Assembly: GCA_944324455.1 (NCBI GenBank) | Contig: CALUWJ010000008.1 | Coordinates: forward strand, 14,235 to 78,234 | Direction: 5' to 3' | Source: Candidatus Gastranaerophilales bacterium | GTDB taxonomy: Bacteria; Cyanobacteriota; Vampirovibrionia; Gastranaerophilales; Gastranaerophilaceae | DNA length: 64,000 nt | Shown: in pieces, positions 2,788 to 54,276 of the stretch | How the letters are laid out: every line of letters starts with the position of its first letter | How positions within the stretch are numbered: the stretch's first letter is position 1 | The notes under the pieces: model-generated | Seen by the model: the letters and a program-made list of their open reading frames with translations, nothing else | What the model was told of the DNA's origin: nothing | Databases searched by the model: none | Made by a program: the position numbers and the translations under genes

Positions 2788-5661
2788 TTATTGATAATTT
2801 TTTAATATTTCGTTTGCAAGTTCTTCACCGGTTTTACCTTGCATATAATCAGGATTAGCTTGTTGTGCAAAGCATAAGTCAGTTAGCGCATATACAACTT
2901 GGTCTGATAAACCTGCTTCATTGAACACTTTATTAAATGCATCATATATTTCTTGACTTCTTTCGTCATCCAAAATTGGCGTATCAGGATCTACTGTTGC
3001 ATTAATATTTTGTTGAGATTTCAAAATATTAACAATGTCATTTGCATCTTTTGCTTCACCTGATTCAAGAAGTTTTAATATTTCATCTGCTGAAAATTCT
3101 AAACCATTTTGAGCACAAGCTATCATTGCAGACCAAGCTTCTTTAGAATTAGCTCTTTGTGATTCAATTTTTTCTTGTTCTTCAGCATCAGCTTTTAATT
3201 GGTCAATTATATCTTGAGCTGTGATAGAATCACCATTGATTATATATAAGCCCTTTGCTTGTTCCATATTAATACTAAAGCCTTGTTGATCGGCAAGTTT
3301 TTCAACTTCTTGTTTCATAATTTGCCAGCTGTTTGCATTACTTAAAGAAGCTGCTTTATTTGCTGCTTGTCTCAAAGCTAAATTTTCATTGCTTTGTATT
3401 CTATCAAGTGTATTATTGAACATTTGTCTTGTTTCTTGAGCAAGTTCTCCAACATTATTAAGGACATTAACATCAGCCATTATATTATTATAACTTGCAG
3501 CTAAGTTATCATATTCAGCATAGTTTTTATTGATTGTTTCTTCAACTTCATCTTCTGATATATTAATTTCAAAGTTCTTGCCGTATGCATCAGAATAAAT
3601 TGCTTCCATAAATTCATTTGTATCATCTTTTCTTGATACATCATACTCTACGCCATTAGCAGTAAATGTAAAGCCATCATTAAATATTTCGGAATTATTT
3701 ATATCTGTTTTACCTGTTGAATTATTAACGTTATCTTCTAATCCATTTAAATCAATTTTGTCTATGCCAAAGCCCTTAGCACTTGTTAAGCCGTAAGCAA
3801 CATTTGTTGTTTCACCGCTTAAGAAACCGCCTGCTCTTTGTTCTGTTTGAGCATTATCAGTGTATTCGGTACTTATCAATTTAAGATTAGCTAATTCATC
3901 ACCCTCTAATACGCCGTTATTATCAGCATCAAGAGATTTTAAATCGTCTAACCATGTTGATGAAGTGCTGCCGCCGACAAAATCACTTGCGCCGCTAAAT
4001 GCTCCATCATTATCTCTATCTATAACAAATAAGAATTCTTTATCTTCACTTGTTTTAAATGATAACGGGTCTGTTCTTTGAATACTGTCAATTTTTCCTG
4101 AATCATCAGAGTCATTTCCGACTGAACCGCCCGGAGTTGTATCAGGGTCAATATATTCACCGTCATAAGAAGCAGTTACACCGGGTTTAACACCCCAAAT
4201 ATCATATATTTTTTGGCTTAAACCTTCAAACATTTGAGCAGTTTCACTATCACCTGCAAGTTCAATAGCATAATTTGCACCTTGATCTTGATTATCAAGA
4301 TCATATATTACACCTGTATTTTTAAATAAACCTTTATCTTTATCAAATAGCGCATACATGGCTTCTTTGAATGTAAATTTAGGTTCAGAATTGCCTAATT
4401 TATTTAAAATTTGCTCATAATTTTCAGCCAATGAAGCAAGTTGTTTATTAGAGCTTATTGTATTGCCTTGTTCAGAGTCCCAAGTATTAAGAGTGCCTTC
4501 AAATTGTGATTTTCCTGTTCCTTGATAATTATTAATAAAATCAACAATGGAAGCATAAATTGGTCTTGCACCGGCATTCATACCGTTTGGAACGCTTAAT
4601 TTTCCATTACTGTAATTAATTTGGGCATTTCCAAAATTTTCGCTCAAAAACTGAGCTGCTTGAGCTTGGCTCATATTTGAAGCTTTAATATCATCTAACA
4701 ACCCTGCATTAATTGCATTTCCTAATTGAACAACAGCATTATTGTTTGTTGTATTAGGATCAACCCCTGTTGTAAGTTCGGGTTTTAAATATTGAGCATA
4801 TTTTTCATTAATTGCTTGAATAGAATTTGCACTTACTGAAGAACTATTATTCTCACTGGCATTAACCGTTGCATCAGGATTAGCAGTTTCTTCTCCTGTA
4901 TAACTTGTATTGTTGCCGGGTTCAACATTCATTTTAGAATCAAATAATTCACCTACGATTTCTGTTTTTTCAAGAGAATAAATAGGAACATCAACCGTTG
5001 CATCAGTATTTGTGAAGCTTGTTGAAGTTGTTCCCATTTTTGATATACTTGAAACAATCATTTCATAAGCAGATTTAGTTGGACCGTATTGGCTTTCTAA
5101 AAGATTTTTTTGATCAATCCATTTTGCAGCCGTATCAACTAAATCTTGAACTTCAGATTGTTTGTTTTCAAGATTGGATAACAATTTTTCAATTTCTTTT
5201 GAACTTGAAGAAATATATGAATTATTTTGAATTCTTCTTTTGATTTCACCGGTTATAGCATCTTTTCCGATTGTACCTTTTTCATACATTGCAAATGTAT
5301 CATTAACAGCACTTTTAACAATTAAAGCTTGACGTTGCTCTAATGTATTTGATTTTCCTTGCACACTTGAAACAAGGCCTGTAATTGCATCAGATTGTTT
5401 TTTAATTTCTTCTTGGTTTTTTGCTAACTCTTCTTCTAAAACAGCCATTTTGGCTTCAAGCTTTTCAACCCTATCTTGCAAAGTAACTTGTTTTGCTTCA
5501 AGAGCTTTTCTTTGGCTATCAGTAATATCATTATCACACACAACAGTAAACACCTTTTTTAGAGCACTTTGTTGATCTGCTCTTTGTTGCGCATAGATGT
5601 TTTTCATCCATTCTTCATTCAAGACTGTTTTGTTTAAATTTTGAAGAAAATCATTTCCCAT
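2788..5661 (-). CDS. large hypothetical protein: coiled-coil N-terminus, internal EF-hand/dockerin-like Ca-binding pair, no signal peptide
   Basis: 957-aa ORF. Heptad-like KLEAKMAVLEEELAKNQEEIKK region. DRDNDGAFSGASDF and DADNNGVLEGDEL loops. Confidence 0.6.
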   Translation of the reverse strand: MGNDFLQNLNKTVLNEEWMKNIYAQQRADQQSALKKVFTVVCDNDITDSQRKALEAKQVTLQDRVEKLEAKMAVLEEELAKNQEEIKKQSDAITGLVSSVQGKSNTLEQRQALIVKSAVNDTFAMYEKGTIGKDAITGEIKRRIQNNSYISSSSKEIEKLLSNLENKQSEVQDLVDTAAKWIDQKNLLESQYGPTKSAYEMIVSSISKMGTTSTSFTNTDATVDVPIYSLEKTEIVGELFDSKMNVEPGNNTSYTGEETANPDATVNASENNSSSVSANSIQAINEKYAQYLKPELTTGVDPNTTNNNAVVQLGNAINAGLLDDIKASNMSQAQAAQFLSENFGNAQINYSNGKLSVPNGMNAGARPIYASIVDFINNYQGTGKSQFEGTLNTWDSEQGNTISSNKQLASLAENYEQILNKLGNSEPKFTFKEAMYALFDKDKGLFKNTGVIYDLDNQDQGANYAIELAGDSETAQMFEGLSQKIYDIWGVKPGVTASYDGEYIDPDTTPGGSVGNDSDDSGKIDSIQRTDPLSFKTSEDKEFLFVIDRDNDGAFSGASDFVGGSTSSTWLDDLKSLDADNNGVLEGDELANLKLISTEYTDNAQTEQRAGGFLSGETTNVAYGLTSAKGFGIDKIDLNGLEDNVNNSTGKTDINNSEIFNDGFTFTANGVEYDVSRKDDTNEFMEAIYSDAYGKNFEINISEDEVEETINKNYAEYDNLAASYNNIMADVNVLNNVGELAQETRQMFNNTLDRIQSNENLALRQAANKAASLSNANSWQIMKQEVEKLADQQGFSINMEQAKGLYIINGDSITAQDIIDQLKADAEEQEKIESQRANSKEAWSAMIACAQNGLEFSADEILKLLESGEAKDANDIVNILKSQQNINATVDPDTPILDDERSQEIYDAFNKVFNEAGLSDQVVYALTDLCFAQQANPDYMQGKTGEELANEILKNYQ

Positions 5662-5785
5662 ATCCTATTGTCCCTTTTCACTTAAATATAATATATGCCC
5701 TTTAGTTAACGACATAAAATTATTGGGACTTTAGAAAAAACAAAAAACGTTTTACAATTGTTAACAAATATAAAAAATAATATAA

Positions 5786-6649
5786 TTATTCCATATTAGT
5801 TTCATAGATTAAATTATATTCTTTAGCAGCTAATCTATTAATTTCATGGCGAATTTTCACTCCGTCGGGTGTTTTTAAAAATTCATCGATTGCTCTTAAA
5901 TTTTCATTCATTACTCTTAAGAATTTGTCGTATTTCTCTGGATGTATTTGTACTTGACGAAACATAAATTGTTTTAAATTCTCAATTATTTGTTCAGGCT
6001 CTTGGGTTGTATCTATTCCAAATGAGCTTAACTCATTAGCTACTTCATCATTATTTAATTCTGAATATGGCCTACATTTAACGTATTCAAGAAACTCTCT
6101 TGCCATATCCATAGCATCATCCATATCAACTTCGTATTTTATATTTAATTTATCAAGAACCATTCTTCCTAAAGTTTTTTCTAATTCCTGATAAACTTCT
6201 TTAGTTCTTTTATTTAATTTAAAAAGCTCTTTTTTAGTTAATTTTGAATACTTTCCATCATTTGTTATTGCTTCTTCGCTTATTGCATTTGTAGTCAAAA
6301 ACAAAGCAATATCATCAATAGAAAGAGGCCATTGCACAGGATGCCCGTGGCATAACATAGAATATGGAATAATAGAATCAGTGTCAACATCACAAGAATA
6401 ATCATCACCCACACGGTCATCTAATATTTCGCCATCAGGAGAAATTACAATTTGACGCTCAAAGCCAGTCTTATTTAGCTCATCAACAATTCTTTCCTTA
6501 GCTTCATTGTAAGCAATTTCCTTTTTATCTAAAGGCTTTTCAGTTCTTTCAAATGTATCACATTTCATTGGTTGAATATAAACTCGATCATTTAACATAT
6601 TGTCATTTCCAACTGGTACAAAGCCTTTAAAGCTGATTTTATCTATCAT
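5786..6649 (-). CDS. hypothetical protein with JAB/MPN-like HGHP..S..D motif
   Basis: 287-aa ORF, AGGAGA SD upstream of ATG. Motif CHGHPVQWPLSIDDI. Confidence 0.5.
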   Translation of the reverse strand: MIDKISFKGFVPVGNDNMLNDRVYIQPMKCDTFERTEKPLDKKEIAYNEAKERIVDELNKTGFERQIVISPDGEILDDRVGDDYSCDVDTDSIIPYSMLCHGHPVQWPLSIDDIALFLTTNAISEEAITNDGKYSKLTKKELFKLNKRTKEVYQELEKTLGRMVLDKLNIKYEVDMDDAMDMAREFLEYVKCRPYSELNNDEVANELSSFGIDTTQEPEQIIENLKQFMFRQVQIHPEKYDKFLRVMNENLRAIDEFLKTPDGVKIRHEINRLAAKEYNLIYETNME

Positions 6650-6752
6650 AATATTCTCCTATTGTTAAATTAATAAACTTTAAACATGTAAAAAATTGAT
6701 TAAATAAATACAATTGTTAAGAATTTGAAACATGGTTAATTTGCTTTATATA

Positions 6753-6784
6753 TAAAAAAATGTGCCTTATAAATATAAGACACA
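6753..6784 (-). terminator. rho-independent terminator after the 634-aa pilin-like gene
   Basis: Minus strand reads gtgtcttata-ttt-ataaggcac (one mismatch) followed by a T-run. Confidence 0.5.
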
Positions 6785-6846
6785 AATTCAAAACACAAAA
6801 AATAACATAAAAATTGATAATTGAATCGGTGGAAAATTATTTTATT

Positions 6847-8751
6847 TTACCACCAGGGATTTTGTAAATCTGGAGGCACTGTTTGGTTGTAAGGTTGACA
6901 CCAACCTGCTTCATCATAATATCCATCACATTCTAAGCATTCTCGGTCTTGGCCCCAAACGTTGCTGCTACATCTTACACATCCGTTTCCAAATTCAGAT
7001 TGGCAGCTAGTTATGCATGCTCCAAATTCCAATACATATCCAAGTGCGCATTTATTGCAGCGAGTACTGCTACAAGATACACATCCTTCGCCAAATTTAG
7101 AGCATGTATTTACACATTTTCCGCCACTTAATTGATATCCTGCTGCACATAAATTACAACGTACATTATCACAATTAACGCACTTTGCATCATATACCGA
7201 ACAGTCATATGTGCAAATTGTGCCATTTAATTTGTATCCACTAAGGCAAGATAAACAAGTTGAACTATTGCATGAAGTACACCCTGCTCCATATTTTGAG
7301 CAATTTGAACAAATTCCGTTATTAAGTATATAGCCGCTATTGCATGAACTACATGACGTTGCACTACAAGTAGAGCAATTAGCAAATAAACTACTGCAAG
7401 AAGTGCAAACCCCGTTTTTTAATACATACCCGCTTTTACAAGCAGTACATGCACTTGCCGTGCAATTAGTACAAGCTGAACCGAACTTAGCTGAGCATGT
7501 TGTACAACTGCCGCCACTTAAAATATAGCCGCTAGCACAGGCGCTGCAAGCACTTGCCGTGCAACTTGTACAACTTGAGCCGAATTTAGAAGCACAATCT
7601 ATTTCGCATTTGCCATTTTTTAATACATATCCGCTAGCGCATTTTAGACATTTATTGCCGTCACACATTTCACAACCTGCACTAATTTTATCAGCACATG
7701 ATGTAACTTCAGCTACACAGCGCACCGAAAAAGCGTCCGTACGGTAATTGTTACCCAGATACCAACTACCACTATTCAAGTGGTAATTGTAGGCGGTGGA
7801 TGAACCATTAACAGTACCACTCCACACGAGGTACGGGTAGCACCAACCATCGCCCGACCCTGGGCAACTGTTCGAATGTATACAATATGCGGACGAGTAA
7901 CCAGAATTGGCGTCACAAAGTTGCAGGCCGTTAACTCCTAATCCAACTGAATTTGCACCCCAATTAGACATTTCAGAGCTTGTAGCTAATCTCCAAGTTC
8001 TACCCCCAGCTGTGAAATTTTTACAAATATAATCAGCGGCATTCCAATCACATACTGTTCTATTGCAGCCGGAGTAGGCGCCACCATTAGCATTATCGCA
8101 ATTAGTTCCAGATGTAGCACCTTTCCAACAACATTTATTTGAACTGCCAGAGTTACATGTTTGATTAACATTAACAACATTAACTCCACTCGGAATAGTT
8201 AAACTTGTTCCATCACCTATATTTTTCTTTGTGATACAAAGATTTCCAATTTGTATAAAGTCTGGGCTTGAACAACTAAAAGATGAACATGGAGTGCTTG
8301 AAGTCGGATTAGTTAAAACATATCCATCAGCACATGCGCTACATTCACTTTCAGTACAACTAGCGCAATGAGAAAATTTAGATGAACAAGACTGACAATT
8401 TTCATCACTATCAAGATATTGACCACTCGGACAAGTTAAACATTTCTTTTCTGTGCATTTTTCGCAATCTTCGCCATATTTATCTTTGCATGGTAAACAT
8501 ATACAATTTTTAGTATCCATATATTCACCATCAGGACAAGAAATACCGCAATCAATACAACCGGCTGAAGTGCACAATGTACAGAAGTCACCGAATTTAT
8601 CAGTACAATCTGTTGTTAAATCGCCGGTGCCGCCTCCGCCAAAGACACCGGATGAAAATTTTTTAGTAATAAGAGGTGTAAAAGCAGCCGTAATACAGCT
8701 TATTACGATTAAACTTATTAATAACTCGACTAATGAAAATCCTTTTTTCAT
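6847..8751 (-). CDS. prepilin-signal protein with about 11 furin/VSP-like Cys repeats and an internal lectin-fold (DUF1566/FISUMP-like) module
   Basis: MKKGFSLVELLISLIV class III signal (G-1, F+1, E+5). Repeats C-x5-7-C-x2-C-x4-C-x2-C..GY.L....C. Module ends WRLATSSEM...AFSVRCV. AGGAGA SD. Confidence 0.8.
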   Translation of the reverse strand: MKKGFSLVELLISLIVISCITAAFTPLITKKFSSGVFGGGGTGDLTTDCTDKFGDFCTLCTSAGCIDCGISCPDGEYMDTKNCICLPCKDKYGEDCEKCTEKKCLTCPSGQYLDSDENCQSCSSKFSHCASCTESECSACADGYVLTNPTSSTPCSSFSCSSPDFIQIGNLCITKKNIGDGTSLTIPSGVNVVNVNQTCNSGSSNKCCWKGATSGTNCDNANGGAYSGCNRTVCDWNAADYICKNFTAGGRTWRLATSSEMSNWGANSVGLGVNGLQLCDANSGYSSAYCIHSNSCPGSGDGWCYPYLVWSGTVNGSSTAYNYHLNSGSWYLGNNYRTDAFSVRCVAEVTSCADKISAGCEMCDGNKCLKCASGYVLKNGKCEIDCASKFGSSCTSCTASACSACASGYILSGGSCTTCSAKFGSACTNCTASACTACKSGYVLKNGVCTSCSSLFANCSTCSATSCSSCNSGYILNNGICSNCSKYGAGCTSCNSSTCLSCLSGYKLNGTICTYDCSVYDAKCVNCDNVRCNLCAAGYQLSGGKCVNTCSKFGEGCVSCSSTRCNKCALGYVLEFGACITSCQSEFGNGCVRCSSNVWGQDRECLECDGYYDEAGWCQPYNQTVPPDLQNPWW

Positions 8752-8861
8752 GTTTTCTCCTAAAAAGTTCTATATTTTTTTTGGTTTGAGAAATTATTTC
8801 AATCTCTCTATACTTGTTGATATTTGTTCACTTTTCTTCTTTTTCTTATGATATTTATTCT

Positions 8862-9040
8862 TTTCCCGCCTGTGGGTATTTCGGCTCTGTTTGGCTAAAG
8901 TCGCCAAACAGCCTCAATTATCCTACGGCGGCATTATAATGCTTAACTCACTTTCTCAACGAAAGCTCGTTTGCGCACCGGCTTACGCTTTCTTCCGCCT
9001 GCCTCATAATTATTGGGCTTGCGCCCAAGTTATATATTTT
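8862..9040. ncRNA. candidate structured RNA (strand unresolved) between the two pilin-like genes
   Basis: About 50% GC island in AT-rich DNA, non-coding in all frames. Hairpin 8883-8913 (9 bp + 2-nt bulge + 2 bp). Enclosing helix 8866-8876/8922-8931. Hairpin 9013-9028 (ttgggc/gcccaa) followed by a T-rich tail on the plus strand. Confidence 0.3.
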
Positions 9041-10520
9041 ACAACTCCGTGACACAGCGAACGGAAAAGGCAGAAGTTTTTTCAGCAGCATATTTTTCCC
9101 AATTTTGCTCATTTAATTCATAATAATATACGTTAGAATAATAAAAAGAACCACTCCACACATGACTTGCATAGCAATTATTGTAAGGAGATACACCAAG
9201 GCAACTATTTGAACGGTCACACCAGGCAGATGAATAACCTGGTGAATCATCGCAAAGTTGTAATCCTTTGGCTTTACCTACTGAATATTTTGCCCAACTT
9301 TCCATTTCATCAATTTTAGCTAATCTCCAATTTTTACCACCTGCTTTGAAATTTTTACAAATATAATCAGCAGCATCCCAATTACATACAGTTCTTTCGC
9401 ATCCGCTATAAGTGCTACCACCATCATTATTGCAATTATATAATGATGCTGTATGACCTTTCCAACAACATTTTTGAGTTTCTGTATCGCAATTTTGATC
9501 AGCATTAATTATGGAAACCCCGCTAGGAATAGATAAAGTTATGCTATTTCCCATATTTTTACCTGTCACACAAAGTGGCTTGTTATTTGTAGTACATACC
9601 CCTATGAAGTCATTACCTGTGCAGAACGTGCTTTTTGTTAATTTAATTTCACAGTCTGTTAGGCAATTTCCATTATACAATGTGTAATTGCTGTTGCATG
9701 CCATACATTTGTCGGATGTACATGCTGTACAATTTGAACCAAATAAAGCGCTACATGTTGTACAAGCACCATTTTTTAATATAAATCCACTTTTACATGC
9801 GGTACATGCGCTTGTTGTGCATGACGTACAATTTGCTCCAAATTTAGAACAATCTATTTCGCATTTTCCATTTTTTAAAGTGTATCCGCTTTTACATGCA
9901 CTACATGTACTTGCGCTACATGCTGTGCAATTTGAAAATAAACTAGAGCAACTCTGACATGTTCCATTTTTTAACGCGTATCCATTTTTACACGCTGTAC
10001 AGGCGTTTATCGTGCAATTTGTGCAATTAGGGCCAAATAATGTATTACAATCAGCTATGCAATCATTTCCATTCAATATATAGTTATTTTCACAAACTGC
10101 ACATTTATCAATAGTGCATATAGCGCAATTTGTAAATTTATCAGAACACAATTGGCAATTATTGTCACTATCTAAATATTGACCATCAGGACAAGTTAAA
10201 CATTTTTTTTCTGTACATTTTTCACAATCTTCGCCATAAGTTTCCTTACAATCTTTGCAGGTGCAACTTGCAGTATCTTTATATTGATCACCAGCACATG
10301 TGTTAGGGTCAAGAGTACATCTTATACATCTTTTATCATCGCATAATGTACAAAATTCATTGAATTTATCAGTACAATCTGTTGTAAGATTAACTTTTCC
10401 ACCTTTTCCAAAAATGGTTGATGAGAATTTTTTAGTAATAAGGGGGGTAAAAGCAGCTATGATAGAAGCTATTACCATTAATGATATTACAAGTTCTAGT
10501 ACAGAAAAACCTTTTTTCAT
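9039..10520 (-). CDS. prepilin-signal protein with about 7 furin/VSP-like Cys repeats and a C-terminal lectin-fold module (paralog of 6847-8751)
   Basis: MKKGFSVLELVISLMV signal, same repeat spacing. C-terminal CCWKG...WRLAKIDEM...AFSVRCVTEL. AAGGAAG SD. Confidence 0.8.
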   Translation of the reverse strand: MKKGFSVLELVISLMVIASIIAAFTPLITKKFSSTIFGKGGKVNLTTDCTDKFNEFCTLCDDKRCIRCTLDPNTCAGDQYKDTASCTCKDCKETYGEDCEKCTEKKCLTCPDGQYLDSDNNCQLCSDKFTNCAICTIDKCAVCENNYILNGNDCIADCNTLFGPNCTNCTINACTACKNGYALKNGTCQSCSSLFSNCTACSASTCSACKSGYTLKNGKCEIDCSKFGANCTSCTTSACTACKSGFILKNGACTTCSALFGSNCTACTSDKCMACNSNYTLYNGNCLTDCEIKLTKSTFCTGNDFIGVCTTNNKPLCVTGKNMGNSITLSIPSGVSIINADQNCDTETQKCCWKGHTASLYNCNNDGGSTYSGCERTVCNWDAADYICKNFKAGGKNWRLAKIDEMESWAKYSVGKAKGLQLCDDSPGYSSAWCDRSNSCLGVSPYNNCYASHVWSGSFYYSNVYYYELNEQNWEKYAAEKTSAFSVRCVTEL

Positions 10521-10580
10521 TACTTCCTTTCAAACACAGCACAATTAGAGGTTTTTATTGCACAAGAACTAAGCTTTTTG

Positions 10581-10617
10581 TATAATTATGTATAGCAAAA
10601 TTTAATACATAATTATA
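10581..10617. promoter_or_regulatory. perfect 13-bp inverted repeat in the divergent promoter region
   Basis: tataattatgtat (10581-10593) and atacataattata (10605-10617), 11-nt spacer. Lies between the pilin-like gene and the HTH/S24-like regulator. Confidence 0.35.
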
Positions 10618-10805
10618 AGCGAAAGCCTAAATACACCAAAATCATCTATTTAGTTATTCGTAAATATGTTATTGTGTAAATTGATACCTTTAAATATGGC
10701 TGTTTAAGATAAACTTCTCATACTTATAATATTAATATACACATGTATTGTGAAGATGTCAACAACAAAAGTGCATAAATGTAAACTTTTCATAGAGAGA
10801 GTATC

Positions 10806-11417
10806 ATGAAATATTCTGAATTAATTAATGCCTTAAAAAATTTAATCAATTACGAACCCAAACAAATTGAATTATGCCGAATTTTAGACATCAAACCAAC
10901 TGCTATGTCAGCCAGAGTCCAAAGAAACAGTGATTTTAATTTAGATGAAATAAAAAAAATTGAACAAAAATATAATATTAAAATTAAGCAAACAGATGGA
11001 TATATAACATTAAAATATTTTGTAAAAAATATCAACTTTAATAATAAAAACGCATTGGATGGCGAGTTTATTGAATATAAACTGCCAATTGAAATTTTCC
11101 CATACAACGCAAAAGATAATACATATTCAATGTGCAGAGTAAAAATGTATGATATGAAACCTTTAATCAACTATGATGATTTTGTTATTTTAGAAAGTAA
11201 TTCTAAAATGCAAATAGAAAACGGGGAATTATACATTTTTAGCTATGACAAACAAGTTTATTTAAAACGCCTTTGCAAAAACATTAATCAAATTGTTGTT
11301 TTGTCTGAAAATCCTGATTTCACAACGCAGTATATAGAAAAAAATCAAATAGAAAAATTAAATCTGATAGGAAAAGTTATTTGTCACGGTAGAATTTGTG
11401 AAGAATATATAAAATAA
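10806..11417 (+). CDS. XRE-type HTH / S24 (LexA/CI)-like repressor with substituted catalytic Ser
   Basis: N-terminal HTH-like QIELCRILDIKPTAMSARVQ. C-terminal CI-like fold (MYDMKPLINYDDFVILE ... VYLKRL ... IGKVICHG). Confidence 0.6.
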   Translation: MKYSELINALKNLINYEPKQIELCRILDIKPTAMSARVQRNSDFNLDEIKKIEQKYNIKIKQTDGYITLKYFVKNINFNNKNALDGEFIEYKLPIEIFPYNAKDNTYSMCRVKMYDMKPLINYDDFVILESNSKMQIENGELYIFSYDKQVYLKRLCKNINQIVVLSENPDFTTQYIEKNQIEKLNLIGKVICHGRICEEYIK

Positions 11418-39667: not shown

Positions 39668-42600
39668 TTAGTTTTCTTTTTCATCATCCTTATTGTTAGT
39701 ATTGTTTGTTTCTTGATTTATATCAACCTTTGCAGCTGCAGACATTATATTTGCTGTTTGGTCAACGGTGTTATCAGAAACTTTTGATGATTTAGAGATT
39801 TCAACTTGTTCTCTTGGTAACTTGATTTGGTTAATCAAAGAATCAATATTATCATCTGTTTGATCAACATCAGGTAGTGGAGGACAGTCATTGTCTACAT
39901 CAACATCAACATCAACATCAACATCTGTATGTGTTTTATCATAAACTAGGATGAAATCATCTCCACCATTTTTGTCAAACTCAATTGTATGTTTTTGATC
40001 TGTTGTTGTGGTTGTTGTAGTAGTAGTTGTAGTAGTTGTAGTTGTATTGTCTGTTTTGTCAACATCTACATCAACTTGTACATCTTTATCTACAATAACT
40101 GAATCATAATTACCTGTATAATCAAATCCATCAGGTTCCGGAGTATAATCTTCATTAGGATCTAAGTTGAAGCCACCTTGGTCTCTAACTTCAATATAAC
40201 CTTTAGATGGAGTACCTTCAGGAAGTCCTTCTAATTGTTCGGCTGTAAGATCTACATCAGAAGCAATCATTGTATCATTCTTATCCATGAATAGCTTATC
40301 TGTAATAATCTTAGATACTGCAAGCTCATCATCAACAGCATTTACATGAACTTCAGGACCTTGATTTTTATCAATTTGTTCATCCCAAACGTTATTTTCA
40401 GCTGTTAACTCAATACCTGCATCTTTGTTGTTTGCATTTTTAAGATCAAGTGTAATACTACCATTTGTATTATTTTCAGGTGTTGTAACTTGTGTTTTAG
40501 TATTTACAACTAATTTAGTTTGGTTAATGTCAAGAACTTGTCCATTTTGTTCTGTTCCATCTTGATCAACTTCAACACTTTGAGGGAATGTATGAACAGA
40601 TTCAGATGTGTGTTTTGCAACTGTTTTTGTTACATCTTTTGTAGTTACATTACCTTTAGCATTGATAGTTGTTTTGGTATCTTTTGCATCTGCAGTAGCT
40701 TTTTTAATTGTTAAATTATTTAAGATAACATCTCCACCTTCTTGAGTCGTTGTAATGTTATTACTTTTTGATTCAAGTGAAGAATTTACAAATTGAATAT
40801 CACCTTTTGTTGTAAAGTTATTTGCTTTACCTGCAATATAATCAACATTTACTGATTTAAGCGAATCTTCGCTTGTGAAATTATTGCTGCCTGCAGCATT
40901 AAATGTTAATCTGTCGCCATAAGTTAAGCTTGGCATTGTTGTTTTTTCTGCATTAATATCACCACCGGTTGAAGTTATATACATATCTTCACCTGATGAA
41001 ATTTTAACAGAATTATCAATATTAATGTTTTCAGCTCCTTGAGGACCAAATGTTATTGTTTCGTAAGCAATTAAATTAACATCTTTGCCACCTTGAATTA
41101 CTGAATTATCTTTAACATTCATCGCACCTTTTGTTGCTTCTGCCGTAAAATTATTACCTGCATTAAATGTTGAATCATTAATATTAACGTTACCTTCTTT
41201 TGCTAATAAATTAATATCATTGTTAGCTTTAACATTTGTTTTGTTAACTGAATTTACATTGCCTTTTGTTGAAGTAATGTTGATATTGTTAGCGTTTGCT
41301 GTCTTGATGGTAGTATCATATTTAACACCATTAACAGTGCCGTCATCTTTTAATGTGCCATCATCATTTCTATCAAATTTCAACGTATAGGCAGCTCTTT
41401 GCAATGTTGCATTATCAAGAGTGAAATCACCATTTGTTTCAAGGGTAATATCGCCGCTTACGGTTTTATTACCATCAACAACATTTGTTTTACTAAATGT
41501 AGCATTATTTGCAACAGTTACATTATTAAGACCTGTTGTACCATCTTCATAAAATTTAATTTCATCATAAACTAATGAAGCATTATCAATTTTTGTGTTT
41601 TTACCTTGAATTGAAAGTTTGCCATCAGCAATAATTAAAGATTGATTGTTGCCATCTTGATCTAAATCACTTTCAATAATAATATCACCTGATAATTCAC
41701 CATTTGAATAAGCAGCCTTAACATCTATATCGCCGGAAGCATCGGCGTCAACATTTTTCATATTAACACCATTTGCTGCAGAAATAGTAATGTTTTTGGC
41801 TTGATTTGTTGCTTCAGTATTTCTGGCTTGTACCAATGAATCATTAATTTGTACTTTATCAGTTGACATAATTTTTGCGTCACCTTTAGCAATAATTTTT
41901 GTATTGTCAACTTTCGCAGTACCGCCATAAGAATATAATCTAACTGCGCCTGCATTTTCAGCGTTTGCCGTACCTTCTTTAGCACCTGCTGACACTATCA
42001 AAGAATCTTTTACTGTTAAATCTTTATCAGCAGAAATATAAACTTCGCCACCATTTTGCGTAGTTGTATCTTTTACAACGCCATCTTTTTCAACAGATGT
42101 ATTTACGGATTCTAAACGAGAATTGCTAACCAATACATCGTTTGAACCAACAATCATAATATCGCCGTTTTCTTTATTAACAAGTTTTGTGCCTTTAATA
42201 ATAGAATTTGATATTTTGATATCAGAACCTTCTGCTTTAGATTTATTTACAATATGAACATCGCCTGATTTGATTGCAGCTTCATCATTTGCTAAACCAG
42301 AGTTATCCATTTCAATATTTCTAACAACATCAGTTTTTGTATCTTCTGCAACTGAATAGTTATCAGCATAACCGTTTGCAAGATATCCAAATGTTACACC
42401 ATCTGCTGTTACCAATCTAACATTTGAGAAAGATTTATCAGAACTTGATGTAATATAGTTATAATTATCACCTGTTCTGATTAAAGAATCTTTATATTGA
42501 ATATTATCGGAAACAATAGCAACTGACTTATTAGGATTAAAATCAGCCATTGTGCCGTCAGAATTAAAATGACCGAATTGAGTGCCGTCTAATTTTATTA

Positions 42601-43243: not shown

Positions 43244-43585
43244 TACTATGTTCCCTTTCATAAACATTTTAATCCATATGCTTATACATGTAATAAAAAC
43301 CACGACATGGAAAAAAATTCTCAAAAACAAAAATCAATTTTACAAAAATTTACAAAACTCAACTTTGTCTAAAGATTATACCAAATAAATTTCAAAAAAG
43401 CAATAAATAAAAAAATAAAAAAATAAAAAAACATTAATATTTCTTTACAATTTGACAAAATAAAGTTTTTTTTACCGTTATTGTAGTATGATTAAAAAAT
43501 CATCAATTTAATTTATTGTTTAATAATTACATATGAATTATTATTGTATTGCGCGTAAAGTATATGTGCTCTTTGTAGTTAATAT

Positions 43586-47596: not shown

Positions 47597-48808
47597 TTAC
47601 TGCTGATAAGCTTGGAATAAAGGTAAATATAATGCCAAACCCAAAATACCAACAATCACACCGATAAATACCATCAGCAAAGGCTCAATCAGCTTTGTGA
47701 AACCATCTATGACAGCATCTAGCTTTTTATCAATAAAATTAACACAATGATACAAAGAATCACCAAGCCTACCTGATTGCTCACCTGTTGCAACCATAAA
47801 TGTCATCATCGTAGGAACTTCTTCAACGTTTTTTAAAGCTACAGATAAGTGTGTACCTTGTTGAACTTTGGCAGCTGCCTGCATAATTGCATTCTTTAAT
47901 ATAAAATTATCAATTGTTAAATTAGCCAAAAATAAACAGTCAACAATCGGAATACCTGCTTCATAAGAAACTTGCAATACTGCAATAAAATTTGAAAAAT
48001 TAGAATATTTTAACATATCAGAAAGCATGGGAATATGCAAGACACATTTATCACAAAAATTCCTAACTCTCGGGAATTGATATGCTTGATTTGCTACAAC
48101 AATAACAACAATAACAGAAACCAAACATAATGCCCAGTATGTTTTTATAAAAATACCCATATCCATACATGCTCTTGTAATCCATGGCAATGGTTTACCT
48201 AAATTGTTAAACATCTCATCAAAAGCAGGGAATACAAAAACAAGCATAACAATAATAGCTACAATTGCCAAAAGCACAACTATGGCAGGATAAATTAAAG
48301 CACCTATTACTTTGCCTTTAACTGCATCTTGTTTTTTCAATAAGTCCAACATACGAACAAGTGTTTTATCCAATTCCCCGGAATCTTCACCTGCTTTAAT
48401 CAGACCAATGTAAACACGACCAAAAATATTTCTGTATTTTTCAAGCGTTTCTCCAAGAGTTGAACCGCCAATAATTTGCTGTCTAAACTCATGGGTAATT
48501 TTTCTAATTCTTTGAGAATCAGAATTCTGCTCAATAAATAAAAGCGCTTCAATAATAGGAATTCCCGTTGAAGTCAATATTTCTAAAGTTGATGTAAAAT
48601 CAATCTTTTCTCTCAAACTTAAAGCTTGAATAACCTGTTTGTCGCCTTTTGTCTTCTTTGTTTTAGCAGATGCATCTTGAAAAGACGTCGGAATAAGCCC
48701 CATAGCTCGCACTTTTCTTCTGGCTTCAACTGTATCAACAGCATTGACTCTGCCGGACACAAGGGTAACATTATCTTCTTTTAGTGCTGTGTATATATAT
48801 TCTGCCAT
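47597..48808 (-). CDS. pilC: type IV pilus / T2SS platform protein (PilC/GspF family)
   Basis: Two T2SSF repeats with AGEDSGELDKTL and TGEQSGRLGDSL, three TM segments. Confidence 0.85.
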   Translation of the reverse strand: MAEYIYTALKEDNVTLVSGRVNAVDTVEARRKVRAMGLIPTSFQDASAKTKKTKGDKQVIQALSLREKIDFTSTLEILTSTGIPIIEALLFIEQNSDSQRIRKITHEFRQQIIGGSTLGETLEKYRNIFGRVYIGLIKAGEDSGELDKTLVRMLDLLKKQDAVKGKVIGALIYPAIVVLLAIVAIIVMLVFVFPAFDEMFNNLGKPLPWITRACMDMGIFIKTYWALCLVSVIVVIVVANQAYQFPRVRNFCDKCVLHIPMLSDMLKYSNFSNFIAVLQVSYEAGIPIVDCLFLANLTIDNFILKNAIMQAAAKVQQGTHLSVALKNVEEVPTMMTFMVATGEQSGRLGDSLYHCVNFIDKKLDAVIDGFTKLIEPLLMVFIGVIVGILGLALYLPLFQAYQQ

Positions 48809-51096
48809 TATTGTTCACCTGCCAAGCCCAAAATTCTAACTTGTTCTTCAATTGAAGTTTCTCCTTCCAGAATGTGCCTTAAACAAGCCATTCTTAAAGT
48901 TTTCATGCCTTGCTTTACGGCATAATCTTCAAGTTCAACATCATGAGCACGTTGTGCAATCATTTTTCTGATTTCATTATTAATAACAAGAATTTCCAAC
49001 ACGGCCAAACGACCCAAATATCCGGTATTTTTACAGTTTGGACATCCATGAGGTCTGTATAATTTTGTCTTAGTGAGTTTTTGTATTTCAACAGGATCGG
49101 TCAAAATCTTTCTTGCTTCTTCATAAGTCGGGAAGTATTCTTCCTTGCAACTTGGACACAATCTCTTGACAAGACGTTGTGCAATAATACCGGAAATTGT
49201 TGAAGATATCAAATAATCTTTTGCACCCATTTCAATTAAACGTGTAATTGTGGCTGAAGCAGAATTCGTGTGCACAGTTGATAAAACCAAATGACCTGTT
49301 AATGAAGCCGAAATTGCAACTTCGAGTGTTTCGTAATCACGAATCTCACCAATCAATATTGTATCAGGGTCTTGCCTTAAAATTGCACGTAATGAATTAG
49401 CAAATGTGATACCTGCTTTAGTATTAATTGAAGATTGATTTATACCCTCTAGACGTATTTCGACAGGGTCTTCAATTGTAGTAATATTGATTGTATCTGA
49501 ATTCAAATATCTTAAAATTGCATACAAAGTAGTAGTTTTACCCGAACCTGTAGGACCAGCCGTCAAGACAATCCCGTTTGGAGTAGATGCAAGATAGCGA
49601 ATTTTTTTTATATCTTCTTCGGTTGCGCCAATAATTTCAATTTTGTCGGCCTTAGCTTCCTTTGAATCCATTTGAGGTGCAAGCACACGAATTACCATTT
49701 TTTCTCTGCCTGCTACAGGGAGCGTATTCACACGAAAATCTTGAGCTTTATTTTTGTATTTTAACGTAAATGAACCGTCTTGCGCACGTCTATGCTCGGC
49801 AATATTCATTCTAGATAATACTTTAAATCTTGAGATTACAGCGCTATCTACCTTTGCTGGAATTTTTAAAACCTCTTGCAAAGAACCATCTATTCTAAGA
49901 CGAACTCTATATCCGACAGAAAGAGGTTCAATATGAATATCTGAAGCGCGTCTGTCGATTGCCATAGTAATTATTTTATTTGCAAGTTGAGAAACAGCGC
50001 CATCTGAATTTTGAACTTCTTTTTCGACTTGTTCCCACAGCTCACCCGCATTTTCATCTATCTTTTCATCTTCATTTATCTGTTGCAATAATTCATCAGT
50101 GTATGACTTGTCAGCACTATAATAAGTGTTGATAAAATTTTCAAACTCGACATGTGTAACCAACATAATAGTTGGTTTTAATCCTGTTTGATAAACTATT
50201 TCATTAATAACCTTTGTGTCGTTTGGATTTACCATACCTACAACCAAAGATTTATCAGTCATGCTCAACGGTATTACTTTGTTTAATTTAACAAAATCTT
50301 CAGGTAAAATAGAAACGGCAGTAGGTAATGATTTCAATTGTTCAGCTGTTGCATATTTTAAGCCCAATTGAGCGCCAAGAGCTTCTTTTAAATCCTTTAT
50401 TGCGACAAAACCCATTTTTACAAGCACTGAACCAAGCGGAATATGTTGCACCTTGCTTTCGGCCAAAGCAATTTCCAACTGCTTTTCTGTAATCAATTGT
50501 TCTTCTATTAATATTTCACCAAGCTTTTTGGTTTGAGGTGATTTTACCTTATCAATATGAGATACAGCAGTCGACTCATCTTTTTTATTTTTTTCGCTTT
50601 CTACATGGTCAGCTTGTTCGTTTACTTCATCTTGATCATCATCATCCAAATCATCATCTAAATCATCGCTATCTGGATCATCCAGCAAATATTCAGGCTC
50701 AGATGAATCATAATCATTAAGCTCAACATCTTCATCTAAGTCAACATCCAAAGAATCATCAGACGTAAGTTCAATTGAATCCTCATCTTCGGGCAATGAA
50801 TAATCTTCAACCGGCAAACCCAAATTTTGCGCTTGCTTCTTTAAGAAATTTGCAAACAATAAATCAAAATTATCTTTTGTTAAATATATAAACTCCAACT
50901 TGTTTTCAATTTTACTGTTAACATATTTAATGATTTCTTCTTTATTGGATTTTGTACTAATCGCTATAAAGAATACATCATTTTGCATATTCACGGGAAC
51001 AAAAGACATATCCCGAACGACAGCAAGATCTAATTTTTTTGCCAAATCGAAATTTATTTTATTAGATATTTTTGTAATTATTGCGTTGTTCATCAT
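48808..51096 (-). CDS. pilB: type IV pilus / T2SS assembly ATPase (PilB/GspE family) with extended N-terminus
   Basis: Walker A GPTGSGKTT, ILIGEIRD Walker B, CPSC...CPNC tetracysteine. Two T2SSE_N-like regions split by an acidic linker. Confidence 0.85.
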   Translation of the reverse strand: MMNNAIITKISNKINFDLAKKLDLAVVRDMSFVPVNMQNDVFFIAISTKSNKEEIIKYVNSKIENKLEFIYLTKDNFDLLFANFLKKQAQNLGLPVEDYSLPEDEDSIELTSDDSLDVDLDEDVELNDYDSSEPEYLLDDPDSDDLDDDLDDDDQDEVNEQADHVESEKNKKDESTAVSHIDKVKSPQTKKLGEILIEEQLITEKQLEIALAESKVQHIPLGSVLVKMGFVAIKDLKEALGAQLGLKYATAEQLKSLPTAVSILPEDFVKLNKVIPLSMTDKSLVVGMVNPNDTKVINEIVYQTGLKPTIMLVTHVEFENFINTYYSADKSYTDELLQQINEDEKIDENAGELWEQVEKEVQNSDGAVSQLANKIITMAIDRRASDIHIEPLSVGYRVRLRIDGSLQEVLKIPAKVDSAVISRFKVLSRMNIAEHRRAQDGSFTLKYKNKAQDFRVNTLPVAGREKMVIRVLAPQMDSKEAKADKIEIIGATEEDIKKIRYLASTPNGIVLTAGPTGSGKTTTLYAILRYLNSDTINITTIEDPVEIRLEGINQSSINTKAGITFANSLRAILRQDPDTILIGEIRDYETLEVAISASLTGHLVLSTVHTNSASATITRLIEMGAKDYLISSTISGIIAQRLVKRLCPSCKEEYFPTYEEARKILTDPVEIQKLTKTKLYRPHGCPNCKNTGYLGRLAVLEILVINNEIRKMIAQRAHDVELEDYAVKQGMKTLRMACLRHILEGETSIEEQVRILGLAGEQ

Positions 51097-51104
51097 TTTA
51101 ATTT

Positions 51105-53018
51105 CTATAAGTCGTATATTTGATTGCTTGTCGGCTCATCGCCATCTTTGATAATATGAGGTGTTACAACTATTACAAGTTCTTCTCTTGTTTTAGATGT
51201 AGTATTATTTCTGAAAAATGCACCTATGAAAGGTAAGTCAGATATTAACGGCATTTTTTGTATAGTTTGAGTTTCATTTTCCTTAATCAAACCTGCAAGA
51301 ACAAGTGTTTCGCCGTCTTTTATTCTTATATTCCTTAATTCTAAATCTCTTCTTTGCAATAATGTAGCGGCAATTTCTCTTGCACCCGAATCACCCGTAG
51401 TATAAACTCTTTCTTTGATAGTTGCAAATTCAGGCGTAATATTCATCGATACATAACCATCAGGAGAGATAAAAGGTACAATTTCAATCATTAAACCTTC
51501 ATCTGAACCTATATCATAAGTTCTTTGAGTTGCACTCGTAACAGTTGATGAACCTTGAAGAACTTGGCTTGTAACAGATTTAACATAATCTGAAGTCATA
51601 TCGATAGTCGCCTTTTTACCATTTGTAACCATGATTTTCGGATTTGTCAAAACTCTGCCATTTCCATTTTCTACCAAGTATTTCAATTGATATACCAAAG
51701 CTCTATTATTTGATTTTGTTATTATTTCAGTTGTAGTATCTGTTGTAGTAGAATCACCTGTTACAGTTGTGCTGGTAACTGTTGTTGGGTATTGGTTGCC
51801 CCAAATAAAGAACGGAGAAGTTGTAGTCAAACCCTCATCAGGTCTAAAGCCTAATGAAATAAACGGAGTCCACAAATTCCACTCGTTGGAAAATTCTTTC
51901 GAACCTGTTTCATTTAATTCAATTACAGATAACTCAACATAAGCCATCAGCTGTTTTTTGTCATGTTCTTTTATAAACTCTTTTATTATTTCAACTTGCT
52001 CAACAGATCCGCCGTAAACACCTATCTTTCCAAGTTCAGAAAAATAAGTTATTGTAAGAGGATTTGCTTTAAATGCAGCTAAAGTTGTACCGTTTGAACC
52101 ATTTCTTGACCTGTTTGTTCTTGATGAAGAAGATGTACTTGAAGAAACTTCATCCCTGCAAGCAACTACTCCTCCGCCCAATACAACTTCTTCCGATTCC
52201 ATATCTGTTTCAGAAGAACTTGAATTATTTGAAGTATCTGCATCATAAAACAAAGAGTCACATATCAAAGTAGCCATTTCCTTAGGAGTTGTATGGTTTA
52301 CCTTGAAATTATTCACCATCGGCTTTGTATCTAAAACCGGTAAAATCCTTTTTACAGCCATTACGTCAGCACTAGAGCCAAATACCACAATTTGATTTGT
52401 TCTTGGGTTTGATGTAACTATAGGCTGACTGGAAAGCCCAAAAATATTAGAATTAAACAAGTTATCATTTAAAAACTCTGCAACGCTTTCTGCGTTAACG
52501 TATTTAACAGGCAATACTGTCATATTTTTTCTTGTGTATGCAACATCTTTAGCTTTTTCAAGAGTCATGACAGTAACCGTATTACCTTCCATAAAATAAG
52601 TTAACTGACAAGATTTAAAAACAACCATAAAAGCATCATTTACATTAACATTTTTTAAATCCAAAGTAACTCTGCCAACAACAGACTCATCAAATGCAAT
52701 ATTTACACCGGCTTTATCTGCCAACATTCTCAATGCTTGCCTTATATCAGAGTCCCTTAATGAAACATTGATTTTTGCATTTGAATTTGTTATTGGTTGA
52801 TTTGAATCCAACCTAAATGTAGCTTCAATTCCCTTTGCGTCCATTGAATTTAAATTCAACAAGCTTTTTCCGTCAGCAGGCTGGCTTTGCATATAAGAAG
52901 TTGAAACACTGTCTAAGTATGAAACTCTGTTGTCATACCCGAAAACCGATTGAGTTAATAATGTTAAACTCAATAAAGTTAAACAAATGTTTATCCTGTT
53001 CGGTTTAAATTTTTGCAT
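51105..53018 (-). CDS. pilQ: secretin (PilQ/GspD family)
   Basis: Signal peptide, N0/STN-like VSLRDSDIRQALRMLADKAGVNIAFD, C-terminal secretin core ...LISDLPFIGAFF...VTPHII. Confidence 0.8.
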   Translation of the reverse strand: MQKFKPNRINICLTLLSLTLLTQSVFGYDNRVSYLDSVSTSYMQSQPADGKSLLNLNSMDAKGIEATFRLDSNQPITNSNAKINVSLRDSDIRQALRMLADKAGVNIAFDESVVGRVTLDLKNVNVNDAFMVVFKSCQLTYFMEGNTVTVMTLEKAKDVAYTRKNMTVLPVKYVNAESVAEFLNDNLFNSNIFGLSSQPIVTSNPRTNQIVVFGSSADVMAVKRILPVLDTKPMVNNFKVNHTTPKEMATLICDSLFYDADTSNNSSSSETDMESEEVVLGGGVVACRDEVSSSTSSSSRTNRSRNGSNGTTLAAFKANPLTITYFSELGKIGVYGGSVEQVEIIKEFIKEHDKKQLMAYVELSVIELNETGSKEFSNEWNLWTPFISLGFRPDEGLTTTSPFFIWGNQYPTTVTSTTVTGDSTTTDTTTEIITKSNNRALVYQLKYLVENGNGRVLTNPKIMVTNGKKATIDMTSDYVKSVTSQVLQGSSTVTSATQRTYDIGSDEGLMIEIVPFISPDGYVSMNITPEFATIKERVYTTGDSGAREIAATLLQRRDLELRNIRIKDGETLVLAGLIKENETQTIQKMPLISDLPFIGAFFRNNTTSKTREELVIVVTPHIIKDGDEPTSNQIYDL

Positions 53019-53070
53019 TTTTATTATTTCTCCTAGATTAATTATTTTTCTTTATTGGTTTTATATTTTC

Positions 53071-54276
53071 TTATTTGATGGTTGATGTACTTCTTGTGTT
53101 TACGCTAACCTCAGATTCGGAAACGTAGCTCGGATCAACCTTTTGATATTTACGATTACCCGAAGAAGTATAACTTGCAACTCCATAAAATCCATCATCA
53201 ATTTTAAAGCCCTCACCAATTGTTGCAGTATAAACATTCTTACCATATGCAATTGCAACAGTTGTTTTTTGTATATCGGCAATTCGGAACTTGTCCAACA
53301 TATCGCCTTCTTGAACAAAATAATCATTTCCTTCAAAGGTAATTATTGCAGAAGGTTTTTTATCATCATACATAATTCCGGATACGGAAACATTCATTAA
53401 TTGATAAGTTTCAGGTTCATCTGTGCCAAATTCTTTTGGCGGTGCAGGAATACCAGCCTTATCATATTGTATGACCTTTTGCGGAACTTCTACAGCCATG
53501 TATTTCTGTATTGGCATAAAAGGATTTGGTCTACCTGTTTGAACAACATTAATAACCTCTTTTTTTTCTTGAATATCCGGTTTAATTTCAGCTATTTCTT
53601 CTTCATTTACTACGGGGATATTTTCCTTTTCCCTATTTTCAATATCTTCTTTAGTTAATTCATTTAATTCTTCTTGCTTGTTTGGTATCAACAGTTCGTC
53701 TTCCGCTAAATTTTTGTTTTTAGTAAAATCAATCGCATAATATACGCCGCCTGCAACAAGAATTGCGAACAATAAAGCTAATAACAAACCTGTTGAACTC
53801 GAGCTTTTCTTTACTTGACGTTTTCTTGGAATAAAATCATCAGATTGAGAGGCATTCATATTGGAAGACTCGATATTTGACTCATCAACCAGCATAGAAT
53901 CATCCAAATTAACATCTTTCAATCGCTCACTATCATCTTCAGCATCTTGAGAATAATCATCACCTTGACCAAAGGCGTCAAATGCTTTTTGTTTAGGACT
54001 ATATTCAGATGCATTATTGTCATTTAATATTTTAGCAAGTTCATCATCACTTACGTTTTCATCATCGCCCTGAACAAATTCTAAATCATCGCCCAAATCA
54101 ATCAAATTTAAATCATCAGTTTCACCGGATGCCTTAGAAGTTTGTTGTCCGTCTTTTATATTTACAAGATCATCTTGCGACGCTTGCAATACATCGTCCC
54201 AATCAACAACTCCGTCTTCAGATACTCTAATATCCGCCCCGTTGTTTATAAAATCTTTTTCTTCCTCAAAAAACAT
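53071..54276 (-). CDS. bitopic protein with acidic cytoplasmic N-terminus and PilP/GspC-HR-like periplasmic C-terminus
   Basis: TM LLLALLFAILVAGGVYYAI. C-terminal VSGIMYDDKKPSAIITFEGNDYFVQEGDMLDKFRIADIQKTTVAI pattern. First gene of the secretin operon. Confidence 0.45.
   Translation of the reverse strand: MFFEEEKDFINNGADIRVSEDGVVDWDDVLQASQDDLVNIKDGQQTSKASGETDDLNLIDLGDDLEFVQGDDENVSDDELAKILNDNNASEYSPKQKAFDAFGQGDDYSQDAEDDSERLKDVNLDDSMLVDESNIESSNMNASQSDDFIPRKRQVKKSSSSTGLLLALLFAILVAGGVYYAIDFTKNKNLAEDELLIPNKQEELNELTKEDIENREKENIPVVNEEEIAEIKPDIQEKKEVINVVQTGRPNPFMPIQKYMAVEVPQKVIQYDKAGIPAPPKEFGTDEPETYQLMNVSVSGIMYDDKKPSAIITFEGNDYFVQEGDMLDKFRIADIQKTTVAIAYGKNVYTATIGEGFKIDDGFYGVASYTSSGNRKYQKVDPSYVSESEVSVNTRSTSTIK

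Follow-up and report, generated by a model that had tools for sequence, protein, structure and literature searches.

What do two adjacent genes encode when each joins a prepilin-type signal to a chain of cysteine repeats and a lectin-like module, and what makes such proteins vary? The pair lies on the minus strand of a 64,000-nucleotide stretch (the window) of contig CALUWJ010000008.1, from a Candidatus Gastranaerophilales bacterium, and encodes proteins of 634 and 493 amino acids (aa). An initial annotation read both as static, disulfide-rich adhesin or lectin cargo of a pilus or pseudopilus. Comparison with related loci leads to a different account of the lectin module: judged from these comparisons, a diversity-generating retroelement (DGR) targets the 634-aa gene and has rewritten it within the species. 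Taken together, the data make it probable that both genes are members of a family of paralogues whose products bind ligands outside the cytoplasm through a DGR-targeted head; within this reading, display on a filament is the inferred part.

The evidence for DGR targeting resides in the variable region (VR) of the 634-aa lectin module, residues 278-346, which runs from LCD to SVRCV. When the VR peptide was used as a query, short asparagine-rich open reading frames (ORFs), which are template repeats (TRs), were found; on contigs L097 and L098, these follow a bAvd-reverse transcriptase (RT) gene pair. Compared with TR2 of L097, the VR is mismatched at 19 of 55 adenines and at 7 of 152 other positions (p=1.3e-7), or at 6 of 151 other positions in a second comparison (p=4.5e-8). 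The TR contains 18 AAY codons among 69.

A comparison within the species gives the same result. In a second strain of the species this locus, L103, has flanks that share 98.9% identity (7.9 kb) and 99.4% identity (6.6 kb) with those of the window. Its gene pair encodes proteins of 810 aa, with three lectin modules, and 599 aa, and all four VRs are adenine-biased (p<=5e-8). Between the VR of the window 634-aa gene and that of the L103 599-aa gene, differences occur at 26 of 55 TR-adenine positions versus 8 of 152 others (p=2e-11). Alignment of the lectin modules with each other shows where this variation is confined. The 200 nt located 5' of the VR are 79-88% identical; within the VR, the non-adenine columns are 94-97% identical and the adenine columns 50-73%. 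As read from the alignments, this contrast is the homogenise-and-scramble pattern left by retrohoming. It is because of the adenine-biased differences from TR2 and from the same-species VR, together with the homogenised non-adenine columns, that the 634-aa gene is assigned as a DGR target.

Complete cassettes were located in relatives by tracing a GC-rich intergenic repeat from the window into related loci and then scanning those loci for RTs. Two RT ORFs with the DGR hallmarks IGNLTSQ...YVDD lie directly downstream of family genes, and bAvd, RT and TR were found beside family members in L026, L036, L098 and L099. Both L026 and L036 contain a family gene, a bAvd-like ORF, an RT above the RVT_1 cut-off and an Asn-rich TR. 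The order in L026 is: the family gene; the bAvd-like ORF (PF22296, E=7e-9); the RT; and the TR, an Asn-codon-rich, non-coding copy of the lectin-module end. Elsewhere in the same genome, 10 VRs at 8 loci match this TR, differing from it at 12-26 adenines and at 0-10 other positions over ~160-220 nt. On L099, a 110-kb contig, a complete cassette adjoins a 480-aa target. This target has a prepilin-type N-terminus, Cys repeats and a C-terminal lectin module, which is the architecture of the window 493-aa protein, and its VR differs from the TR at 18 adenines and one other position over 218 nt. Targets at further RT loci have the same type of N-terminus.

The organization of these cassettes varies. 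In L097 (964-1688) and L098 (1959-2683), two different TRs stand in tandem 3' of the RT, each after the same leader, MKKYKENELMILVQDNKLSIKLCD. The RTs of L098 and L099 share 99.7% identity; L099 has one TR, which is different. Positions 6290-6700 of L099 contain, in order: the TR; a 3' flank typical of a C-terminal VR, with the hairpin TTGGGCGCAAGCCCAA; the promoter region and first 12 codons of a family gene (MKKGFSVLELII); GC-rich filler; and the usual post-TR terminator. From its sequence, this arrangement looks like what recombination of a TR with a target locus would leave behind. L101 (56-4021) carries two bAvd-RT-TR cassettes facing each other, an inverted duplication on a 4-kb contig that may be real or an assembly artefact. 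Another DGR, in samples of the same studies, adjoins a prepilin-type gene (NAFTLAELLVSV...) with a lectin-like part and a Gly_rich_2 part (L089, 932-3355; L090 and L091, 941-3355). In one sample the gene forms a single ORF of 808 aa; two other samples have it divided into ORFs of ~360 and 398 aa.

The static interpretation of the initial annotation would have the variation arise by duplication and recombination, without a retroelement. It could accommodate the large recombinational swaps at this locus, the invariance of both proteins over many contigs and the absence of adenine bias in the 493-aa gene. It does not accommodate the adenine-specific differences of the 634-aa module, both to the TR (p=1e-7) and to its same-species counterpart, the homogenization of non-adenine VR columns across modules, or the complete cassettes that adjoin family members in relatives. 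This explanation is refuted for the 634-aa gene and for the family, and is very improbable overall.

Several observations nevertheless weigh against a DGR-diversified lectin head. The VR-equivalent stretch of the 493-aa gene lacks adenine bias, with differences at 26 of 54 adenines versus 55 of 149 other positions (p=0.19). Neither RT, Avd nor TR was found within the 64-kb window. The TR2 used here comes from other metagenome contigs with an unproven species link to the window, the cognate TR was not recovered, and 6-8 non-adenine mismatches persist between TR2 and the window VR. Identical copies of the 634-aa and 493-aa proteins occur on 7 and 12 public contigs, respectively, and their 90% clusters contain no variants; the window as such has matching contigs in the ENA samples ERZ24773333, ERZ28614392 and ERZ28614994. 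Since the proteins are invariant across contigs, ongoing diversification in the window strain cannot be claimed. Finally, structural searches give weak support for the lectin fold (best E=0.03, TM<=0.53).

The RT and TR of the window's genome would lie outside the window. None of the TRs of the RT homologues P0130, P0134, P0141, P0126, P0128, P0135 and P0124 matches the window VRs. TR1 of L097/L098 was considered as a template for the 493-aa gene and rejected, as it does not match. Among all fetched loci, the only relatives of the 493-aa stretch at 9051-9257 are the window itself and an identical public copy, L001. Because this stretch matches no TR found, the 493-aa gene may be a decayed target or may be served by an unseen TR.

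A protein search returned 156 relatives, all metagenomic, nearly all of which begin (G/A)FSL(V/I)EL(L/M)ISL. A scan of one genome per species across 185,579 species gave 143 loci; the best 80 of these fall in 18 genomes, with up to 12 loci per genome, and every named record among the best 80 is Gastranaerophilales, Melainabacteria or 'Cyanobacteria bacterium SIG27'. Judged by the named carriers in the genomes scanned, the family appears lineage-specific. No relatives were found in IMG/VR viral contigs. Every complete ORF that carries the lectin module also carries the prepilin-type N-terminal motif. There are 1-3 lectin modules per protein, or up to 5 in a wider search, and a single protein has up to 3 VRs that match a TR, internal VRs among them. 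Of 85 family ORFs, 41 run off a contig end, the pattern expected because repeated genes break assemblies.

The head of these proteins, about 190 aa long, was likened by the initial annotation to DUF1566, now the Lcl_C family PF07603 (PMC11162425). This comparison holds at the level of the family. In the window, the Lcl_C scores of the 634-aa and 493-aa proteins (26.4 and 30.3 bits) are both below the gathering threshold of 34.9; across the family, Lcl_C matches 26 of 29 members at E<=0.01, with a best E of 5e-24. A model of the 493-aa lectin domain alone has a predicted local distance difference test score (pLDDT) of 93.3 and a predicted template-modelling score (pTM) of 0.91. Its best fold matches are C-type-lectin-like, all of them weak, and include Lcl-CTD (8q4e), snake-venom C-type lectins, Bd2740 and ToxD; fold searches returned zero matches at E<=0.001.

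The AlphaFold2 model of the entire 493-aa protein (mean pLDDT 87.3) has just one helix (residues 7-30), followed by a disordered linker (residues 27-42), beta-hairpin repeats arranged in a chain and, at the C-terminus, a compact domain. A globular pilin domain, in which the C-terminal half of the helix packs on a beta-sheet, is not present in this model, in keeping with the initial view that the proteins lack a pilin head.

The repeat chain likely forms a stalk. Cysteine makes up 83 of 634 residues (13.1%) and 60 of 493 residues (12.2%), bearing out the earlier estimate of more than 10%. The core CxxCx3-5CxxC recurs with a period of 32-33 aa. The earlier count of 7 repeats is correct for the 493-aa protein; the count of 11 in the 634-aa protein becomes 10 copies plus one degenerate unit. 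The proposed similarity to furin and VSP repeats is upheld only indirectly. For either window protein, furin-like, GCC2_GCC3 and VSP models gave zero matches at E<=1 in Pfam and NCBIfam, and matches among relatives are rare. Searched with the family profile, the PDB yields R-spondin furin repeats at E=1.3e-4 and cysteine-rich domains of TNF receptors at E=3e-3, and R-spondin FU1-FU2 ranks top of the fold search, weakly.

An exhaustive profile search extends this comparison, with 1,123 representatives at E<=1e-30. Among the best 150, 122 were new relative to the first search, and 61 of these belong to the family. The remaining half consists of giant proteins (1,400-5,500 aa) that have 10-14% Cys, ordinary signal peptides and no lectin module and match the repeat part of the profile only (E=1e-100 to 1e-190). 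Three of the four giant proteins scanned pass Pfam VSP (1.2e-67, 1.6e-33 and 4.9e-36). It is because of the R-spondin matches and these VSP-passing relatives that the stalk repeats are indirectly supported as being of the VSP/furin-like kind, by common descent or by convergence. With Giardia VSP-type and R-spondin FU repeats they share the CxxC spacing and the beta-hairpin repeats, and with Giardia VSPs also membership of a large, variable family of surface proteins. They differ in that the window proteins match none of these Pfam models directly. VSP variation arises by expression switching among genes and is not known to involve a retroelement.

Where would such a head be displayed? The N-termini of the 634-aa and 493-aa proteins, MKKGFSLVELLISL and MKKGFSVLELVISL, follow the pattern MKKGFS(L/V)(V/L)EL, and both ORFs and their class III signal exist as initially annotated. 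The 634-aa protein is above the curated cut-offs of N_methyl (22.3 bits vs 21.2) and TIGR02532 (18.0 vs 16.3); the 493-aa protein is slightly below both (12.7 and 14.6 bits). N_methyl recognises 25 of the 29 family members. Among 106 complete N-termini, the residue at -1 is Gly 56 times, Ala 49 times and Ser once, and 105 have Phe at +1; Glu at +5 does not vary in either family alignment.

A domain scan of the window identified type IV pilus or type II secretion system (T2SS)-like machinery at 47597-54276, a candidate assembly or export route. As the initial annotation stated, this machinery is distant from the gene pair and no prepilin peptidase accompanies it: Peptidase_A24 is absent among the window ORFs scanned, with those between 16626 and 24693 outside the scan. 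The window contains no further prepilin-type ORF. A pilD gene has been reported in a Gastranaerophilus genome (PMC5877343).

Given these features, we tentatively propose that the proteins are headless-pilin tip or minor subunits that bear 1-5 DGR-diversified lectin domains on a disulfide stalk, with one TR programming at least 10 subunits; this is a possibility that falls short of an even chance. A serious alternative, itself less likely than not, is that the same DGR-diversified binders use the helix as a mere membrane anchor, cleaved or not, with the head in the periplasm or on the envelope, like 'membrane-bound' DGR targets. Membrane-anchored binding proteins are the commonest cellular DGR targets (PMC8144416). 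The features that count against pilus display are those that an anchor would explain: the model has a 24-residue helix and a disordered linker in place of a filament-packing pilin head; close to half of the family has Ala instead of Gly at -1; and the genes are scattered, with the window pair unlinked to the pilus genes. However, a plain anchor would not need the near-invariant F+1 and E+5 or the short basic leader, and the 634-aa protein passes both curated cut-offs. In addition, a diderm head for external ligands must cross the outer membrane, and the window encodes a secretin system.

Within the signal region of the 634-aa protein, residues 16-19 read VISC, a lipobox-like motif that raises a further alternative: cleavage by signal peptidase II at Cys19 to give a lipoprotein, like Legionella LdtA and other DUF1566/Fib_succ_major DGR targets. 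The basic n-region and hydrophobic stretch that accompany this motif fit such a signal. Of 106 members, 68 have Cys at that position and 49 have a lipobox-like motif, and lipoprotein signals have been noted in this DGR target class (PMC5758913). Yet over half of the family lacks a lipobox, as does the 493-aa protein, because its helix contains no cysteine. The conserved features are G/A at -1, F+1 and E+5, rather than the Cys. The charged Glu also falls within the hydrophobic (h) region, which is not typical of Sec or lipoprotein signals. Lipoprotein processing is thus highly unlikely.

Judged from sequence in relatives and from the signature in the window, diversification most likely involves: transcription of the bAvd-RT-TR cassette; copying of the TR RNA by the RT with Avd, with errors at adenines; and replacement by the cDNA of the ~207-nt lectin-module VR (LCD to SVRCV). 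Since 18 codons of the TR are AAY, as many as 18 Asn-templated residues of the head, and with them the ligand-binding surface, would be rewritten with the fold preserved. In relatives, one TR serves many scattered targets.

Display would then proceed by distinct steps. Prepilin peptidase may remove the MKKG leader. The hydrophobic helix would allow a type IV pilus or T2SS-like machine, for example that at 47.6-54.3 kb, to extract the protein from the inner membrane and pass it through the secretin. Exposure would be most likely as a tip or minor subunit. Here, the narrow, disulfide-bonded stalk could hold the variable head off the cell, where it would bind changing glycans or surfaces in the gut.

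Many elements of this proposal have precedents. Among the closest is the DUF1566/DUF823/Fib_succ_major class of DGR targets (CLec2, category 'd', e.g. Legionella LdtA; PMC5758913). The likeness includes: a VR in a DUF1566-type C-lectin fold that ends ...SVRCV; adenine-specific mutagenesis from a TR with RT and Avd; and surface-directed binding targets with conserved cysteines. The family described here differs in having: a prepilin-type N-terminus instead of a lipoprotein signal; a long VSP/furin-like Cys-repeat stalk; up to 3 TR-matched VRs, including internal ones, and up to 5 lectin modules per protein; and at least 8-10 scattered targets per TR.

The use of one DGR for many targets also has a parallel. 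The TvpA DGR of Treponema denticola likewise serves many scattered paralogous targets in a host-associated bacterium. TvpA is a lipoprotein with an FGE-sulfatase-type C-lectin domain, and it is not known to have a pilin-type signal or a Cys-repeat stalk. Seven further scattered targets are described for this DGR (PMC5758913).

Other proteins share individual parts of the architecture. InterPro entry IPR011460 is presumably DUF1566. A census of modular pilins lists the combination IPR012902-IPR011460 seven times and a version with two IPR011460 domains twice (PMC8179133). The initial claim that no such architecture had been described is therefore not sustained: N_methyl with DUF1566 is already present in these nine entries, and C-lectin domains of the DUF1566 type form an accepted class of DGR targets (PMC5758913). 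In the modular pilins PilB and PilC of Streptococcus sanguinis, an N-terminal IPR012902 motif carries a grafted functional module, often a lectin, for which tip display in adhesion has been proposed (PMC8179133). PilB and PilC keep a canonical globular pilin module, whereas the proteins here retain only the N-terminal helix, and no DGR link is described for modular pilins in that study. Legionella Lcl is a 'lollipop' in which a repetitive stalk carries a DUF1566 (pfam07603) C-type-lectin-like, glycan-binding head (PMC11162425; PDB 8q4e). In contrast to the proteins here, the Lcl stalk is a collagen-like trimer, its head has no disulfides, and it has neither a prepilin signal nor a DGR.

In the open-access full-text literature, no paper was found that links DGRs with Melainabacteria, Gastranaerophilales or prepilin. 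Nor was the present combination found described: a headless pilin-type signal, a VSP-like stalk, several VRs including internal ones, at least 10 targets per TR, and this host lineage. The novelty lies in the combination and not in the principle, since the DGR mechanism, targets of the DUF1566 class and modular pilins had each been described before.

The significance of the combination lies in what it may join. To our knowledge, DGRs are the only bacterial system that rewrites a protein's binding site on purpose, and type IV filaments are the most widespread bacterial surface fibres. If filament display is correct, their union would give a gut bacterium a new way to track changing glycans, hosts and phages. 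It would represent a programmable library of pilus adhesins and the first link of DGR hypermutation with type IV filament subunits, to which the family adds a eukaryote-like Cys-repeat stalk, several VRs per protein and at least 10 targets per template. Uncultured, non-photosynthetic relatives of cyanobacteria would thereby gain a concrete and testable surface-recognition system.

Table 1. Positions of the gene pair, its predicted parts and associated features in the window.
Feature	Position	Strand	Basis or description
634-aa gene	6847..8751	-	Prepilin-type signal, 3 Cys repeats, lectin module with DGR variable region, 7-8 Cys repeats
Class III-type signal of 634-aa protein	8662..8751	-	Leader MKKG, F+1, E+5, hydrophobic helix to ~residue 30
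3 N-terminal Cys repeats, 634-aa protein	8287..8607	-	Pattern count
Lectin-fold module (DUF1566/Lcl_C type), 634-aa protein	7702..8289	-	Lcl_C 26.4 bits
DGR variable region (residues 278-346, LCD...SVRCV) in 634-aa lectin module	7714..7920	-	Mismatch tests vs TR2 of L097 and vs L103
7 regular and 1 degenerate Cys repeat, C-terminal end of 634-aa protein	6898..7698	-	Pattern count
493-aa gene	9039..10520	-	Prepilin-type signal, 7 Cys repeats, C-terminal lectin module
Class III-type signal and helix of 493-aa protein	10431..10520	-	N_methyl/TIGR02532 below threshold; model helix residues 7-30
7 Cys repeats of 32-33 aa, 493-aa protein	9651..10376	-	Pattern count; modelled as beta-hairpin stalk
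C-terminal lectin-fold module, 493-aa protein	9042..9623	-	Lcl_C 30.3 bits; module-only model
VR-equivalent stretch of 493-aa gene	9051..9257	-	Adenine-bias test negative
GC-rich hairpin, 6-bp stem, 4-nt loop	9013..9028	-	11 nt past 493-aa stop codon, ~23 nt past VR-equivalent stretch
Strain-variable segment	7482..10113		vs L103 8408-11793: 68-84% identity between 98.9%/99.4% flanks
Type IV pilus / type II secretion-like machinery (T2SSF, T2SSE with MshEN, secretin, PilP-like)	47597..54276	-	Domain scan

Both genes have good ribosome-binding sites a few bases 5' of the ATG, in a window with a G+C content of ~30%. Recent tandem duplication of the pair was rejected, as the two genes are only ~75% identical in DNA sequence. 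An invertible promoter or phase-variation switch was also rejected: no inverted repeats were found in 6500-11000, and promoter-like sites are not above their frequency in shuffled sequence. A phage origin was rejected, given the absence of relatives in IMG/VR viral contigs and neighbours that are housekeeping genes.

The breakpoints of the strain-variable segment fall inside the genes, at approximately residue 136 of the 493-aa protein and residue 423 of the 634-aa protein. At the sequence level, this segment points to cassette-like recombination among paralogues, in addition to DGR mutagenesis. The flank of the hairpin that follows the 493-aa gene recurs after the C-terminal VR in L103 and after the TR in L099, making this hairpin a candidate terminator or DGR cis-element.

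The GC-rich segment used to trace related loci lies between the two genes at 8854-8991 on the minus strand (core 8861-8935), with a folding energy of -62.4 kcal/mol (z=-5.0) and no Rfam match. It is missing at the same junction in L103, from the same species, and in L099. Copies with 86-100% identity are present in other Gastranaerophilales, in one orientation or the other and often 13-320 nt 3' of family genes. The segment resembles a small mobile repeat, similar to a miniature inverted-repeat transposable element, or a structured RNA.

Directly downstream of the pair, at 2788-6649 on the minus strand, are ORFs of 287 aa and 957 aa without a family match, the latter with only faint coiled-coil character; their order is conserved in L001 and L103. 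A Peptidase_S24 (LexA/CI-like) gene at 10806-11417 on the plus strand is divergent from the 493-aa gene and keeps its position in L001 and L103. Further away, 39668-45382 encodes a two-partner secretion (TPS) pair, which consists of a 1220-aa TPS-domain protein and a divergent ShlB/FhaC-type transporter. The sole Rfam match in the window is a ribosomal protein L10 leader (RF00557) at 63398-63537 on the minus strand, with 47.4 bits versus a gathering threshold of 44.

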